From contig CALUNE010000010.1 in NCBI GenBank assembly GCA_944321945.1, positions 15,560 through 79,559 on the forward strand: a stretch of DNA of 64,000 nucleotides, written 5' to 3'. Origin of the DNA: an uncultured Alistipes sp. (GTDB lineage: Bacteria > Bacteroidota > Bacteroidia > Bacteroidales > Rikenellaceae). Below are positions 58,379-64,000 of the stretch, in pieces (position 1 is the first letter of the stretch; every line of letters starts with the position of its first letter). The notes beneath the pieces are model-generated. The model was not told the origin of the DNA and did not search any database. It saw only the letters and a program-made list of their open reading frames with translations. The translations under genes were made by a program, and so were the position numbers.

Positions 58379-60565
58379 TTACGGAATAATTTTCAATATC
58401 CCGCCCTCGTCGCTGACGATTTTGCCTTCGGCGAGCAATTCGCGCAGGGCGGCGGCCACGCGTTCGGGCGAGGCGGGGCAGTCGGCAGCCAGTTGTCGGG
58501 GGTCGGCCGGCGCCGAGGCAAGCCGTTCGAGCAGGCGGGTGCGGAGCGTCTGGTCCGACCATGCGGCGGCCGGTTCGGTCGTGGGCGCAGGGGTGTGGCC
58601 GGCGGCTTTCGGGGAAGATTCTCCGCTCGGCCGGGCCGCCGGACTGTCCGAAACCGCCGCGCCGGAATGTGCCGGACCGGGGATCGTCGCGCCGGAATGT
58701 GCCGAATTGGGGACCGTCGCGCCGGAATGTGCCGAATTGGGGAACGTCGCGCCGGAATGTGCCGGACCGGGGACCGTCGCGCCGTCGGATGACCCTTCGT
58801 GAGCATCCGGAGGGGTGCCGTCTCGTGCGGCCTGCGCCTTGGCGGCCCGGCGGCGGGCCAGGCAGACGTCGCAGATACCGCACGGCTCGGGCGCCTCGGA
58901 ACCGAAGTAACGCTCCAGAATCACGCTCCGGCATTCGGTGTCGTTCTCCGCGTAGGCCAGCATTCGCTCGAAGCGTTCGTGCATCAACTCCTGGCGCCGC
59001 CGGTAGGTCTCCGGCGCGATGTAGAGGTCTTCGCGCGGGAGCCGCTCCTCGTTCAGGAAGAGGATCGGCGAGCGGTTCGACGGGATGTAGCGGATCACGC
59101 GCAGCTGCCAAAGCTCCTTGAGCAGCTCCTTGACCCGCTCGACCGTATAGCCGCTCCACGTGGCCAGTTCGCCCTCGTCGATGGGGCGGAAGTCGGTGAA
59201 GATGCCGTTGTAGAGGCGCAGCATCGTGCGGATGAAGGGATCCAGCCGGTCGCGCTGCAGCCGCAGCCGGTAGAGGTCGTCGCGGCTCACGCAGAACATC
59301 ACCCGTGCCGGATTGTCCTGCATGTCGGTCAGTGTCATGTAGCCGTTCTGCTGGAGAAGCTTCACGGCGCTCTGCACCGTCCCCGCATAGAGATGTTCGC
59401 GGGCGCAGAAGTCGTAGAGGTTGAACAGATGGCTCGTCTCGCCGCCTTCGCCGATGCCGATGCGCAGGTAGGAGCAGATGCGTTCGTAGATCTCCTTGAT
59501 CTTCTCGAGCGGCGGGAACTCCTGGTCGAAACGGCGGGCGATGCGGTCGCCGTCGTCCGAGGCCACCAGCAGCAGGGCATAGGCCCGTCGGCCGTCGCGA
59601 CCGGCGCGTCCGGCCTCCTGGTAGTAGCTCTCCAGCGAGTCGCACATCGCGTAGTGGACCACAAAGCGGACGTCGGCCTTGTCGATTCCCATCCCGAAGG
59701 CGTTCGTGGCCACCATTACCCGCACCTGGTTCTGCAGCCACTCCTCCTGACGCCGGGCGCGGTCCGCATGGCCCAGACCTCCGTGGTAGGCTGCGGCGGT
59801 GATTCCGGCATCGCGGAGCTGTTCGGCGAGCTGTTCGGCCCCTTCGCGGGTCCGCGTGTAGACGATCCCCGAGCCGGGAACGTTGTGCAGCAGCCGCAGC
59901 AGCTGACCCAGTTTGTCGTCCGTGTGGCGGACGCTGTACGAAAGGTTCGGGCGGGCGAAACTGCTGCGGATAATGTGCGGTTCGGCGAATTTCAGGTGGT
60001 GCATGATGTCTTCGGCCACGGGCTTCGTCGCCGAGGCCGTCAGTGCCAGCACCGGTACGTCGGGGAGTTTTTCGCGCAGTTCGGCAATGCGCAGGTAGGA
60101 GGGGCGGAAGTCGTAGCCCCACTGCGAGATGCAGTGGGCCTCGTCGACGGCCAGCAGCGTCACGGGCATCCGCACGACCCGCAGCCGGAAGGCCTCGGTG
60201 GCCAGCCGTTCCGGCGCCACGTAGAGAAACTTCGTGTCGCCGTAGACACAGTTGTCCAGCGCGATGTCGATCTGCCGCGGCGAGAGTCCCGAGTGGATTG
60301 CCACGGCCGGGATGCCCATCCGCCGCAGACGGTCGACCTGATCCTTCATCAGGGCGATGAGCGGTGTGACCACCACGCAGAGCCCCTCGCGGGCCATGGT
60401 CGGCACCTGATAGGTGAGCGACTTTCCGCCGCCGGTGGGCATCAGCGCCAGCGTGTCGCGCCCCTCCATCACCGAACGGATGATCTGCTCCTGTACCGAA
60501 CGGAAGGATGTGAAGCCCCAATAGCGTTTGAGTGTCTGAAAGATTTGGTCCGTGGCGGATTCCAT
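58379..60565 (-). CDS. recQ: RecQ-family DNA helicase
   Basis: MPTGGGKS, VDEAHCISQWGYDFRP, ATNAFGMGIDK, QEAGRAGRDG and Zn-binding CR...CGICDVC motifs; promoter TACCTTTG (minus) at 60571-60578. Confidence 0.93.
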   Translation of the reverse strand: MESATDQIFQTLKRYWGFTSFRSVQEQIIRSVMEGRDTLALMPTGGGKSLTYQVPTMAREGLCVVVTPLIALMKDQVDRLRRMGIPAVAIHSGLSPRQIDIALDNCVYGDTKFLYVAPERLATEAFRLRVVRMPVTLLAVDEAHCISQWGYDFRPSYLRIAELREKLPDVPVLALTASATKPVAEDIMHHLKFAEPHIIRSSFARPNLSYSVRHTDDKLGQLLRLLHNVPGSGIVYTRTREGAEQLAEQLRDAGITAAAYHGGLGHADRARRQEEWLQNQVRVMVATNAFGMGIDKADVRFVVHYAMCDSLESYYQEAGRAGRDGRRAYALLLVASDDGDRIARRFDQEFPPLEKIKEIYERICSYLRIGIGEGGETSHLFNLYDFCAREHLYAGTVQSAVKLLQQNGYMTLTDMQDNPARVMFCVSRDDLYRLRLQRDRLDPFIRTMLRLYNGIFTDFRPIDEGELATWSGYTVERVKELLKELWQLRVIRYIPSNRSPILFLNEERLPREDLYIAPETYRRRQELMHERFERMLAYAENDTECRSVILERYFGSEAPEPCGICDVCLARRRAAKAQAARDGTPPDAHEGSSDGATVPGPAHSGATFPNSAHSGATVPNSAHSGATIPGPAHSGAAVSDSPAARPSGESSPKAAGHTPAPTTEPAAAWSDQTLRTRLLERLASAPADPRQLAADCPASPERVAAALRELLAEGKIVSDEGGILKIIP
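58659..58784. repeat. In-frame 30-bp tandem repeat in recQ (4 units, ABBA)
   Basis: GCGCCGGAATGTGCCG(GACC/AATT)GGGGA(T/C/A)CGTC, encoding SGATxP(GP/NS)AH on the minus strand. Confidence 0.92.
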
Positions 60566-60637
60566 ATCCACAAAGGTACGAAAAATTAGGCGATCTGCGG
60601 AATTTTTCCTACATTTGCCCTCGGACAAGTCGCAAGC

Positions 60638-60913
60638 ATGATGAAGATCCGTTCGGAATACAGCCTTCGCGAAATGGCCGGAGAACACGTCGTCGTGATC
60701 CCCGGAGGCGGCGAAACATCCGCTCCGACGCGCATCGTCGCACTCAATCCGTCGGCCTGCTATCTGTGGGAGAGCTTCCGCGGACGGGAGTTCTCGGCCG
60801 ACGATGTCGCTCGGGCCCTCGAGGCGCGTTACGACGTGGAGCCCGGGACGGCCCGGCGCGATGCCCGCCGCTGGATCGATCGACTTGCCGACTGCGGGAT
60901 CATCGAGGCATGA
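60638..60913 (+). CDS. Stand-alone PqqD family (RiPP recognition element-like) protein
   Basis: 91 aa; LREMAGEHVVV, ALNPSACYLWE, L...YDVE...ARRD...WI..L...GII pattern; promoter TACATTTG at 60610-60617. Confidence 0.88.
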   Translation: MMKIRSEYSLREMAGEHVVVIPGGGETSAPTRIVALNPSACYLWESFRGREFSADDVARALEARYDVEPGTARRDARRWIDRLADCGIIEA

Positions 60914-61344
60914 AACTCAAACGCTATATCGCTCTGGTGCTTTGCGCCCTCTACATCGCGGCCACGGCCTCGGTGTCGCTGGCTTCGGTGACCTGCAAGT
61001 GCCTGGATATGAAACGCGCCGTGACGGAACATCGCTGTCCGACGTGTTGCGTGATGCATGACCTCACGCCGGACAATGGCTGCACGGGCGGGCAGATCGG
61101 CTCGGACTGTGACTGCGACCGCCATTCCACCCGAATCGATCTCTACACGTCGTCGCATTCGAACGACAACGACAAATTCATCAAGTGCATCATCTCCGAA
61201 CTGCCGCCTTCGCTGACGGTTGAATGTCCGCCTGCGGCCACTCTTCTTGTCGCAGCGCGCGGTGCGGCATTGCGTGCGGAAGCACTCCCCCGCGATGTCG
61301 TGGCGGAGTGTGCCGGACGAAGGGCTCCTCCCTCCCGGGGCTGA
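60910..61344 (+). CDS. Cys/His-rich exported protein with C-terminal RAPP motif (CruR/DUF2946/HYC_CC_PP-like)
   Basis: ATG overlaps the PqqD-gene stop (ATGA); hydrophobic N-terminus; 12 Cys including CKC, CPTCC and CDC; ends GRRAPPSRG*. Confidence 0.78.
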   Translation: MKLKRYIALVLCALYIAATASVSLASVTCKCLDMKRAVTEHRCPTCCVMHDLTPDNGCTGGQIGSDCDCDRHSTRIDLYTSSHSNDNDKFIKCIISELPPSLTVECPPAATLLVAARGAALRAEALPRDVVAECAGRRAPPSRG

Positions 61345-61688
61345 TTCTGCAAGGACGGAGCCGTGTGTCCGCACCCGGTTCCGTACGGCAGATCCGCCGT
61401 CGGCCTCCGCTGCCCGCCGACAGACAATTACTGTCGGCATCTCCTCCTTTTTCATGGCAATGAATCCGATTGCCGGGGCTGCAGGGCTTGCGGCACCTCT
61501 TTTCCCGGACCGAAATCCATCCTCCCCGCTGTGGCGGAGAGACCGGGCCCGGGTAATCAACCCCTTATCACGGGACAGAGTCCCGATGGCCGGTCGGAAC
61601 GCTCATGCGCTGCCGAAGCAACGGTTTGCAATCCGGTTGCAGGAGCGTTGCGTTACCTTTGCCGGCGAAACAAAACGGAAAATCTCAC

Positions 61689-64000
61689 ATGATTCGCAAA
61701 ATTTTTCTCATGACGGCGTCGGCCGTTCTGGCCGACATCGCGATTGTCGGGGCCCAGGACCTGCGCGGCGTGGTGCGTGACGCCGACCTTCAGCCCCTCG
61801 TCGGAGCCTCGGTCTACTGGGCCGGTACGACCATTGGCGCCAGTACCGATGCCGAGGGCGGTTTCCTGCTCCACCGCGTCAAGGGATACGATCGGCTGGT
61901 GGCCTCGTATCTCGGCTATGTCAATGATACGATCCGGGTCGACGGAGGTGTCGGCCAACTTGAATTTAGGCTTCGTTCCGAAGGCGTCGCGCTCGAGGAT
62001 GTCGTCGTCGAGGGGGCCGTCAGCGGCAACTTCGTCAAGCGTGACGGCATTGTCAAGGGCGAGATGATCTCCTTTGCGGGGCTCTGCAAGATGGCCTGCT
62101 GCAACCTGGCCGAATCGTTCGAAAATTCGGCCTCGGTCACCGTCGGGTACAGCGACGCCATCTCCGGCGCCCGGCAGATCAAGATGCTCGGTCTGGCCGG
62201 CACCTACACCCAGATTCTCGACGAAAACCGCCCGATCATGCACGGTCTGAGCGCCCCCTACGGCATGAGCTACACGCCCGGCATGTGGCTCAATTCGATT
62301 CAGGTCTCGAAGGGCGTCGCCTCGGTGACGGCCGGCCACGAGGCCATCACCGGGCAGATCAACCTCGAACACCGCAAACCGACCGACGAGGAGCGTCTCT
62401 TCCTGAACGTCTATCTCGACGATGAACTGCGCCCGGAGGTCAACCTCTCGTCGGCCTTCCCCGTCTCGAAGAACAAGAAGCTCTCGAGCGTCATCCTGCT
62501 CCACGGTTCGGGCGATACGGATGTGCGCCGCATGGACCACAACGACGACGGATTCCATGATCTGCCTGTTTCGAACCAGATCAACGTGGCCAACAAATGG
62601 CTCTACGCCGCCGACAACGGCATGCAGATCCGCTGGGGCTGGAAGTTCGTCCAGGAAAACCGTCTGGGCGGCATGATGGACTACAGGAACACGGCGGCCA
62701 TGCGCGAGGCGATGCTCAACGACTGGAACTGGCAGGCCGAGGACAAACCCATGCCCCTCTACGGATCGCACATCCGAAACCGCAACGTCAACGGCTATTT
62801 CAAACTCGGCATGCCCGTCGGGCCGTCGGTTTACGATGCCGACGAACAGGACGAGATGCGTTCGAATCTGGCGTTCGTGGCCGATTTCGACCACTTCAAC
62901 GAGGATGCCTACTTCGGGTTGAACAACTACGACGGCAATCAGAACTCCGTGGCGCTGAACCTGATGTACAACCACTACTTCACCTATCGTTCGTCGCTGA
63001 TCGTCGGCGGCCAGCTCCATCTGGACTACTACCGCGAGGGGCTGCTGAACCGTACGCCGTGGATCGAGCAGCTGGCGCAGGCCGATTTCAATCTGGACCG
63101 CAACGAGCGTGAGGCGGGTCTCTATGCCGAGTATACCTACGCCGTCAAGGAGCGGTTCTCCATCGTGGCGGGCATTCGGGGCGACTACAACCACTATTAC
63201 GACCGCTTTTTCGTGACGCCGCGCGGCCACCTGAAGTGGAACATCACCCCGTCGACCACGCTCCGTGCCTCGGCCGGTCTGGGCTACCGTTCGACGAACC
63301 TCCTGACGGACAACATCGGTGTGCTGGCCACGGGCCGCGCCATCCGTCCGGTGACCTTCGAGGACGGCCTGCCCGTCGACGCCTCGTTCCGCGATGTCGA
63401 CCGCATGGAGAAGGCCCTCACCGTGGGCGGAAGCCTCACGCAGAGCTTCGGACTGGTCAAGGCCGAGGATGCCACGTTGAGTGTCGACTACTTCCGCACG
63501 CAGTTCTACAATTCGGTGGTGGCCGATCAGGAGATGTTTGCCGACCGGATCGTCTTCTACAGCACCGACGGCCGCTCCTATACCGATACCTATCAGGTCG
63601 ACTTCTCGTGGTCGCCCGTCGAGCGTCTGGACATCTTCGCCACGTTCCGCTACACGGACAGCGAGATGACGATCCGGCGTGCGGACGGTTCGCCGGCCCG
63701 GGTCGAACGACCGCTGGTCAGCCGTTACAAGACGCTGCTCAATATCCAGTACGCCACGAAGTTCCGTCGCTGGACCTTCGATGCGACGGCCCAGTTGAAC
63801 GGTCCGAGCCGGGTGCCTCTCTTTGTCGACAACGGTGCCGGAGTGCTCATTCCCGACTATGACAACTATTCGCCGCGTTATCCGATGTTCTATGCGCAGG
63901 TGAGCCGCAAGCTTGGCAAGTTCGATCTCTACGTCGGTTGCGAGAATATTGCCGACTACATGCAGAAGGAGCCGATCGTGAATGCGGAGAATCCCTACTC
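61689..64000 (+). CDS. TonB-dependent receptor, probably metal-related (partial; runs off the window; absent from the ORF track)
   Basis: MIRKIFLMTA signal peptide; N-terminal LRGVVRD....LVGASV.W.GT..G..TD.EG.F domain; plug LCKMACCNLAESFENSASV.VGYSDA.SGARQIKMLGL; same frame reads VGCENIADY..KEPIVNAENPY at the window end. Confidence 0.93.
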   Translation, partial: MIRKIFLMTASAVLADIAIVGAQDLRGVVRDADLQPLVGASVYWAGTTIGASTDAEGGFLLHRVKGYDRLVASYLGYVNDTIRVDGGVGQLEFRLRSEGVALEDVVVEGAVSGNFVKRDGIVKGEMISFAGLCKMACCNLAESFENSASVTVGYSDAISGARQIKMLGLAGTYTQILDENRPIMHGLSAPYGMSYTPGMWLNSIQVSKGVASVTAGHEAITGQINLEHRKPTDEERLFLNVYLDDELRPEVNLSSAFPVSKNKKLSSVILLHGSGDTDVRRMDHNDDGFHDLPVSNQINVANKWLYAADNGMQIRWGWKFVQENRLGGMMDYRNTAAMREAMLNDWNWQAEDKPMPLYGSHIRNRNVNGYFKLGMPVGPSVYDADEQDEMRSNLAFVADFDHFNEDAYFGLNNYDGNQNSVALNLMYNHYFTYRSSLIVGGQLHLDYYREGLLNRTPWIEQLAQADFNLDRNEREAGLYAEYTYAVKERFSIVAGIRGDYNHYYDRFFVTPRGHLKWNITPSTTLRASAGLGYRSTNLLTDNIGVLATGRAIRPVTFEDGLPVDASFRDVDRMEKALTVGGSLTQSFGLVKAEDATLSVDYFRTQFYNSVVADQEMFADRIVFYSTDGRSYTDTYQVDFSWSPVERLDIFATFRYTDSEMTIRRADGSPARVERPLVSRYKTLLNIQYATKFRRWTFDATAQLNGPSRVPLFVDNGAGVLIPDYDNYSPRYPMFYAQVSRKLGKFDLYVGCENIADYMQKEPIVNAENPY

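Follow-up and report, generated by a model that had tools for sequence, protein, structure and literature searches.

A RAPP-ending leader gene before a TonB-dependent receptor gene in Alistipes: a candidate metal-sensing translational switch, apparently overlaid by Fur-type control in one genome

What is the role of a small cysteine-rich protein, ending in Arg-Ala-Pro-Pro (RAPP) plus three residues, whose gene lies between a PqqD gene and a TonB-dependent receptor gene? The question is raised by the end of a 64,000-nucleotide (nt) stretch of DNA from an uncultured Alistipes sp. (the window; contig C10, positions 15560-79559, of a 2.2-Mb genome that is 78% complete). An earlier note, made from the sequence alone, had seen here a Bacteroidota version of the copper-responsive CruR circuit of Bordetella, with the PqqD protein, a stand-alone recognition element (RRE) for ribosomally synthesized and post-translationally modified peptides (RiPPs), as an added component. 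The present analysis points to a model that we regard, taken as a whole, as probable: a RAPP arrest leader, an RNA helix switch at the receptor start in most Alistipes, a Fur-type rewiring in this genome, and a PqqD separable from the switch. The kind is already known, from CruR and from RAPP open reading frames (ORFs) before TonB-dependent receptor genes. The features of the unit are the following:

60610-60617, plus strand: -7 promoter box TACATTTG, 20 nt 5' of the PqqD ATG.
60638-60913, plus strand: PqqD/RRE gene, 91 residues (Pfam PF05402, E 7.8e-16).
60910-61344, plus strand: leader gene, 144 residues, with an N-terminal transmembrane (TM) helix, a Cys/His-rich region and RAPP plus 3 residues.
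61321-61332, plus strand: RAPP codons AGG GCT CCT CCC, the presumed arrest site, invariant in the family.
61689-64000, plus strand: TonB-dependent receptor gene, clipped by the window end; 240 nt of contig remain.
62085-62102, plus strand: CKMACC (C-x3-CC) in the receptor plug, within the signature ACCNL(A/S)ESFE.

The ORFs and motifs described in the earlier note are all present, namely PqqD, its ATGA overlap with the next gene (PqqD TGA at 60911-60913, leader ATG at 60910-60912), a 144-residue protein with 12 Cys, 4 His and a C-terminal end R-A-P-P-S-R-G, and a receptor with C-x3-CC; the promoter box reported before PqqD also exists, with its position corrected to that given above. The leader protein matched no Pfam or NCBIfam model at E <= 10. 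A family profile of 11 orthologues was searched against 1.84 billion representative proteins (E <= 0.001) and found 259 cluster representatives. Among the best 150 of these, 125 carry RAPP and 3 carry RGPP exactly 3 residues from the C-terminus (128/150), and the rest are mostly gene calls that seem truncated or frameshifted. RAPP likewise stands exactly 3 codons before the stop in 35/35 Alistipes loci, despite overall identities of 22-61%; conservation of the motif in orthologues, on which the earlier note had made its proposal depend, is thus borne out. At locus L061 (genome G554), the scripted ORF reading gave no intact RAPP ORF.

Outside this motif, few positions are held in common. Other database sequences are, in 106 cases out of 107, only 20-44% identical to the window leader, and the sole invariant positions among 108 aligned leaders are C29, C31, C69, R138, P140 and P141, with Y15, C67, H72, L78, Y79 and A139 conserved in 90% or more; no conserved stretch of 7-10 columns was found in the leader alignments. 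An AlphaFold2 model from the same 108 sequences has a helix at residues 2-27 (predicted local distance difference test, pLDDT, >90), a mean pLDDT of 65 and a remainder predicted to be unstructured; the TM helix is its only confident part, and no metal site can be read from it. The gene is near-universal and single-copy in Alistipes (109/120 sampled genomes; 41/44 high-quality ones) and rare in the rest of the order; the family, which is unnamed, is almost Alistipes-specific. Judged by its sequence, the leader looks like a small membrane-anchored Cys/His-rich protein of the RAPP arrest-peptide kind.

The neighbourhood of the leader is equally constant. A receptor gene lies downstream of it in 35/35 Alistipes loci (58-88% identity), and CKMACC is found in the plug of 35/35 of these receptors, whose Pfam domains are CarbopepD_reg_2, Plug and TonB_dep_Rec_b-barrel; a sequence search found no close relative of the receptor with a solved structure. 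Behind the receptor, 10/10 loci with enough sequence have a gene for a secreted HMA protein (PF00403, ~104 residues, motif D-C-E-H-C). In nearly all Alistipes, the leader-receptor locus therefore has the appearance of a translational switch that senses a metal, functionally analogous to CruR. The proposed Bacteroidota version of the CruR circuit stands to the extent that a conserved RAPP leader is tied to a receptor and an HMA gene, and falls in that the leader is not a DUF2946 protein. In the profile hidden Markov model searches suggested in the earlier note, PqqD matched PF05402, and the DUF2946 and HYC_CC_PP models went unmatched.

How might such a leader act on the receptor gene? In 30/35 loci, the spacer between the two genes measures only 53-103 nt, mostly 62-76 nt. 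When 23 of these 30 short spacers were submitted to RNAalifold, a helix was predicted whose 5' strand extends from the second Pro codon through the three following codons and the stop, and whose 3' strand is a conserved box, GTTTTAACCAAT..ACGG, at a distance of 9-28 nt from the receptor ATG on its 5' side; between the two strands a hairpin of variable sequence is enclosed. Pairing of the leader end with this box is assigned to 30/35 loci. The two strands covary (for example TTGG/CCAA, TCGG/CCGA and AAGG/CCTT), with 93.2% of cells paired and 13 cells changed on both sides, a result reached by 0/500 shuffles; in slid controls, 20-52% were paired. The same helix design, in an entirely different sequence, occurs in G343, an AT-rich genome of another Bacteroidales family. 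In genome G609 (L104, 2378-2840) RAPP is followed by 4 residues, and the paired strand still starts directly after the Pro codons. The G609 leader is divergent and was missed by the family profile, and both helix strands have changed in step (CGGTGACTGG with CCAGTCATACGG).

In CruR, arrest takes place with the Pro codons in the ribosomal P and A sites (PMC12992588). A ribosome stalled in this way reaches ~15 nt further, and hence over the 5' strand of the helix. We propose that a ribosome arrested on RAPP would cover this strand and hold the receptor initiation region open, and that the helix would close over that region once the arrest is released. Release would be brought about by metal binding to the Cys/His domain, or by its export, and the receptor and HMA protein would be made according to metal supply. 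The constant 3-codon distance from RAPP to the stop would be accounted for in this way. We infer that the receptor start is held open by arrest in the manner of SecM, MifM and ApdA, rather than through the Rho-dependent output of CruR.

The latter kind of output deserves consideration nonetheless. Under it, the arrested ribosome would mask a Rho loading site in the 3' half of the leader or in the spacer, and release would lead to Rho-dependent termination before the receptor; in the window, Rho would have to target transcripts that read through the 344-nt spacer. CruR has a similar layout, with 145 residues, RAPP 3 residues before its C-terminus and a long spacer rich in G+C (PMC9426467). Stretches with more C than G occur at 61117-61233 (C 0.32-0.35 against G 0.15-0.19) and at 61390-61467 (C 0.37 against G 0.21), and the mean C-G bias over the last two thirds of 35 leaders is +0.06 to +0.07, against -0.02 in the receptors. 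However, this bias is weak, and most spacers are short (53-76 nt) and taken up by the hairpin and the covarying helix, features that speak for translation as the regulated step; the receptor in the window also appears to have its own promoter. We think a CruR-type output unlikely; given the weak C-over-G bias, a Rho component may still contribute.

The comparison with other families raises a further scenario, namely that the small protein is mainly a partner of the receptor, such as a membrane-anchored periplasmic metal relay, and that RAPP is a feature of the protein or a minor pause. In hhalign, leader residues 1-104 are remotely homologous to HYC_CC_PP (96.2%, E 2.7e-9), and HYC_CC_PP genes precede homologous receptors that have the same plug signature, ACCNL(A/S)ESFE including CC, in other families, without a terminal RAPP; moreover, the leader ORF has stayed intact in the window despite the loss of the helix there. 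Against this, beyond the TM helix and a few Cys and His the sequence changes rapidly and no structure is predicted. Towards the C-terminus only RAPP is invariant, the most powerful arrest motif known, and it keeps a constant distance from an RNA strand covarying with the receptor start. The GLRAPPxxx end is also found on unrelated sensor domains such as DUF6769; the aligned part of the leader and DUF6769 in hhalign is confined to the last 16 residues, which hold this end. A role mainly as receptor partner consequently seems improbable to us, and an arrest leader remains the reading that we favour. HYC_CC_PP (NF047658) genes were seen at L030, L033 and L035, directly 5' of receptors 37-45% identical to that of the window. 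Pausing in these proteins might depend on another signal, their PP motif, which is internal (e.g., YPPPPF or SPPxxPP).

Does the switch operate in the window itself? Here the spacer is 344 nt long and contains three features of its own:

61563-61605, plus strand: 3' remnant of a Fur-family gene (blastn against G128).
61627-61641, no strand: palindrome TGCAA-TCCGG-TTGCA, covering the -33 region; putative operator for a Fur-family regulator.
61654-61661, plus strand: -7 promoter box TACCTTTG, 27 nt 5' of the receptor ATG.

The window is one of five long-spacer, or Fur-type, loci, the others being in G128 (the nearest relative), G067, G110 and G630. In the four others (L017, L022, L023, L050) an intact Fur-family gene (PF01475) lies between leader and receptor; the window spacer has no intact one, only the 3' remnant. 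By blastn, window positions 61563-61686 match a G128 segment (72.5% over 131 nt, E 2.8e-15) composed of the last 43 nt of the Fur-family gene and the receptor promoter block, whereas the G128 Fur-family protein, used as a tblastn query on the window spacer, gave nothing even at E 10. A MAFFT alignment hinted that the spacer starts inside Fur codon 9; the hint is not significant, and we do not claim it. The palindrome TGCAA-n5-TTGCA lies 58-62 nt before the receptor ATG in 5/5 Fur-type loci and is found in 0/30 short-spacer loci. The TACCTTTG box lies ~25-27 nt 5' of the receptor ATG in at least 4 of the 5 Fur-type loci (G630 was not scanned), and no box of this type is present in the 7 short-spacer loci scanned. 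The second box, at 61654, which the earlier note had raised as a possible promoter of the receptor's own, is therefore upheld: it is part of a block of promoter and operator that is also conserved in the nearest relative, at a locus where the helix is absent.

The likely regulator is encoded elsewhere in the genome. Contig C5 carries a Fur-family paralogue, 44% identical to the G128 gene and with weak PerR, Zur and Fur matches as to its class, and two copies of TGCAACCSGGTTGCA, the window palindrome, lie between it and a divergent P1B ATPase gene (C5:17420-19960; L115:5415-7960). The shared palindrome suggests a small regulon. Since the C5 paralogue shares the operator, the window receptor most likely belongs to its regulon and is most likely transcribed from its own promoter under its control. 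The window shows a derived form of the locus. In its sublineage, a Fur-family gene together with a palindromic operator and a -7 promoter was probably inserted between leader and receptor, and the Fur-family gene of this genome has since decayed to the 3' remnant. The box forming the 3' strand of the helix is replaced by the promoter-operator block, so the leader end in the window has no partner at the receptor start. Single-sequence folds of four Fur-type spacers gave no common structure joining the leader end to the Fur start, and gating of the Fur-family gene by the leader, considered as a candidate, is not claimed. On the receptor tree, the Fur-type loci fall in two separate places (window and G128; G067, G110 and G630). 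The insertion may have occurred twice or moved between lineages, the backbone of this tree being poorly resolved.

In this context, the leader of this genome could be a relic that has not yet decayed after the promoter insertion and the loss of the Fur-family gene. The helix partner is indeed lost, and the 344-nt spacer holds a decayed gene and terminator-like hairpins; a terminator scan of 60500-61900 gave 1 site, with 1.4 expected. Yet the ORF has not been disrupted, all five Fur-type loci retain RAPP plus 3 residues, and the ratio of nonsynonymous to synonymous substitution rates (dN/dS) of the leader against G128 amounts to 0.47 for the whole gene and 0.09 for the TM segment. We therefore give the relic scenario little credence.

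Which metal would be sensed? The C5 P1B ATPase scores 500 bits with TIGR01512 (Zn/Cd type), above the cut-off, and falls below the cut-off of the copper model. The HMA protein has a D-C-x-x-C motif, which we take to be the zinc-binding form seen in ZntA. Given a Zn/Cd-type ATPase with a shared operator and this motif, zinc fits better than copper and is the more likely metal; copper is not indicated.

Is PqqD, finally, a working part of the switch? Its product matches PF05402 with 58.6 bits (cut-off 23.4) and is 39-74% identical across 25 relatives; by its homologues, the window is assigned to Alistipes (Rikenellaceae). It is present in 96/121 sampled Alistipes genomes and stands directly upstream of the leader in 22/35 loci, the gap being mostly -4 to ~20 nt and in a few cases, by ORF calls, up to ~120 nt. 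As a component, the stand-alone RRE would bind the nascent Cys-rich leader and tune arrest or export. Such a role could be read from the single promoter, from the overlap of stop and start or their spacing within ~20 nt in most PqqD-bearing loci, from a linkage that persists across leaders only 22-30% identical, from the lack of an adjacent RiPP enzyme (no partner enzyme was found adjacent to PqqD) and from G128, which has PqqD without NTP_transf_5. The two modules, however, occur separately. PqqD is absent genome-wide from five 99%-complete genomes that keep the leader, receptor and HMA genes, and conversely it survives beside recQ in G645 and G624, where leader and receptor are lost. At the place of the missing leader, receptor and HMA genes, these two genomes (L103 and L105, respectively) have a lipoprotein gene and a 540-residue gene. 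No leader region was found to be conserved only in PqqD-bearing species, and a complex prediction for PqqD and leader with both alignments scored 0.00, which speaks neither for nor against binding.

The presence of PqqD instead goes with that of NTP_transf_5 (PF14907), a gene usually located on a different contig. Both are present in 83 of the 121 genomes, PqqD alone in 13, NTP_transf_5 alone in 0 and neither in 25, so that NTP_transf_5 accompanies PqqD in 83/96 genomes and is found in 0/25 without it; kin in this table are not independent, which makes it overstate the association. The joint absences fall in at least 5 separate places on the receptor tree. In this genome NTP_transf_5 stands alone among housekeeping genes (C2:83941-84687), and a few Alistipes genomes have a second PqqD next to NTP_transf_5. 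Outside Alistipes, the genes of close PqqD relatives in other families (E 1e-17 to 1e-37) are clustered with those for an S24-like peptidase, NTP_transf_5 and an ABC exporter, and these clusters contain no RAPP gene. This distribution points to PqqD and NTP_transf_5 as a dispersed pair of RRE and enzyme, and on the simplest view PqqD would work in trans for NTP_transf_5, its tie to the leader being no more than a common promoter. An integral role of PqqD is accordingly set aside, a part in the arrest switch being very doubtful. A narrower form, in which PqqD binds the emerging leader and sets the duration of the RAPP arrest as a trans-acting input, besides any role with NTP_transf_5, appears highly improbable.

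Several points weigh against the model in its present shape. Bacteroidota initiate without Shine-Dalgarno pairing, and that a helix at -28 to -10 would block such initiation is an assumption. In the window the leader is intact and moderately constrained (dN/dS 0.47) though its helix target is gone, so it must still act. The metal assignment derives from the D-C-E-H-C motif and from an operator in common with a Zn/Cd-type ATPase. As to PqqD, the association with NTP_transf_5 is overstated by kinship as said above, the gene has held its place directly 5' of the leader throughout the depth of the genus, its stop in many cases overlapping the leader start, and G128, in which NTP_transf_5 is missing, is a complete genome.

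The promoter boxes and the neighbour upstream complete the description of the locus. TAnnTTTG occurs in 31 copies in the window, with 7.0 expected, and 0/100 shuffles reached 31. Copies often form divergent pairs across the window, consistent with the -7 promoter element of Bacteroidota. In relatives, a box equivalent to TACATTTG is found 10-35 nt 5' of the first gene of the unit. The recQ gene is on the minus strand, divergent from the PqqD-leader unit, with its -7 box at 60571-60578. The recQ 3' end (58400-58800, minus strand) encodes, at the RecQ C-terminus, several copies of a tandem repeat of ~9-10 residues, PAHSGAT(F/V/I)P(N/G)(S/P), which is unusual for RecQ.

Thousands of RAPP leaders before TonB-dependent receptors have been catalogued, and experiments have been made on a single one, Bordetella CruR. 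The Alistipes family offers a testable case in a genus of gut Bacteroidota, with a sensor domain unrelated to DUF2946, a covarying helix that would account for the fixed position of RAPP 3 codons from the stop, and an output that would have to function without Shine-Dalgarno pairing. The window would represent a natural experiment in which Fur-family control of transcription came to lie over a nascent-peptide switch and probably took its place, before the Fur-family gene itself decayed. The close joint loss of PqqD and NTP_transf_5 gives a clue to a widespread, uncharacterised RRE system of Bacteroidales. New here are the negative result for PqqD and its link to NTP_transf_5, the Fur-type rewiring and decay, the homology to HYC_CC_PP and the leaning towards zinc.

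Among known systems, TonB-dependent zinc receptors under Zur control exist, such as ZnuD of Neisseria. The window resembles this type in the overlap between a receptor promoter and a putative operator of the Fur family, and departs from it in that the regulator has only weak PerR, Zur and Fur matches and the receptor is unrelated by sequence to any solved structure. A survey lists 5,450 RAPP ORFs upstream of annotated TonB-dependent receptor genes, including those of Bacteroidota (PMC12992588). It covers the same class as a catalogue, without analysis of family, RNA structure, Fur rewiring or PqqD, and Alistipes was not found in the parts of its supplements consulted.

We found no paper treating DUF6769 or HYC_CC_PP as leaders. 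DUF6769 (PF20558, Bacteroidales) is like the Alistipes leader in its TM helix, His/Cys cluster, GLRAPPxxx end and position 5' of metal genes; it is unlike it in its sensor domain and downstream system (efflux), and the leader gave no PF20558 hit. In other Bacteroidales families, L029, L031, L032 and L036 have DUF6769 proteins with an HHHH/Cys cluster and GLRAPP plus 2-3 residues, their genes lying directly 5' of His-rich lipoproteins of ~400 residues that resemble a resistance-nodulation-division (RND) adaptor (CzcB-like). This arrangement suggests that RAPP leaders also gate metal efflux in Bacteroidales. HYC_CC_PP likewise shares with the leader a TM helix, Cys motifs and a position directly 5' of homologous ACCNL(A/S)ESFE receptors. 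Nevertheless, the window leader lies below the model of that family (no hit), with (L/V)(S/T)C-x-C in place of HYC, and HYC_CC_PP has PP 10-25 residues from the end rather than RAPP.

SecM, MifM, VemP, ApdA and ApdP are arrest peptides that open an RNA structure covering the initiation region of the following gene. The leader shares with them a signal for export or insertion at the N-terminus and a motif of the RAPP/RAGP type close to the C-terminus. The relatives in Alistipes further resemble this group in the helix that joins the ribosome-covered strand to the downstream start, which is absent in the window; they differ from it in that the downstream gene is a metal receptor and not Sec/YidC machinery, and in that there is no Shine-Dalgarno sequence to hide. 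CruR itself is Bp2923 of Bordetella pertussis (DUF2946/PF11162), the leader of cruR-crtA(bfrG)-bp2921, with a Rho-dependent output (PMC9426467) and an arrest shown in vitro (PMC12992588). Both leaders have ~145 residues, an N-terminal export or TM segment, Cys-based metal ligands and RAPP exactly 3 residues from the C-terminus, and both lie directly 5' of a TonB-dependent transporter gene in a metal-related operon, as is the case in 35/35 loci. In contrast to CruR, neither the window protein (E <= 1) nor any of 11 orthologues (E <= 10) matches PF11162, and a conserved CXXC at 45 residues from RAPP is lacking. C29, C31, C67 and C69 lie 69-109 residues before R138, and the Alistipes leader has instead a C-x-C after the TM helix, a CC or C-x-C, and H-S-T. 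The output in the relatives looks translational, with a helix over the start region, rather than Rho-dependent, and the third gene encodes a secreted HMA protein in Alistipes and a PepSY_TM protein in the CruR operon. Unlike in CruR, the phylum here is Bacteroidota and the metal is probably zinc.

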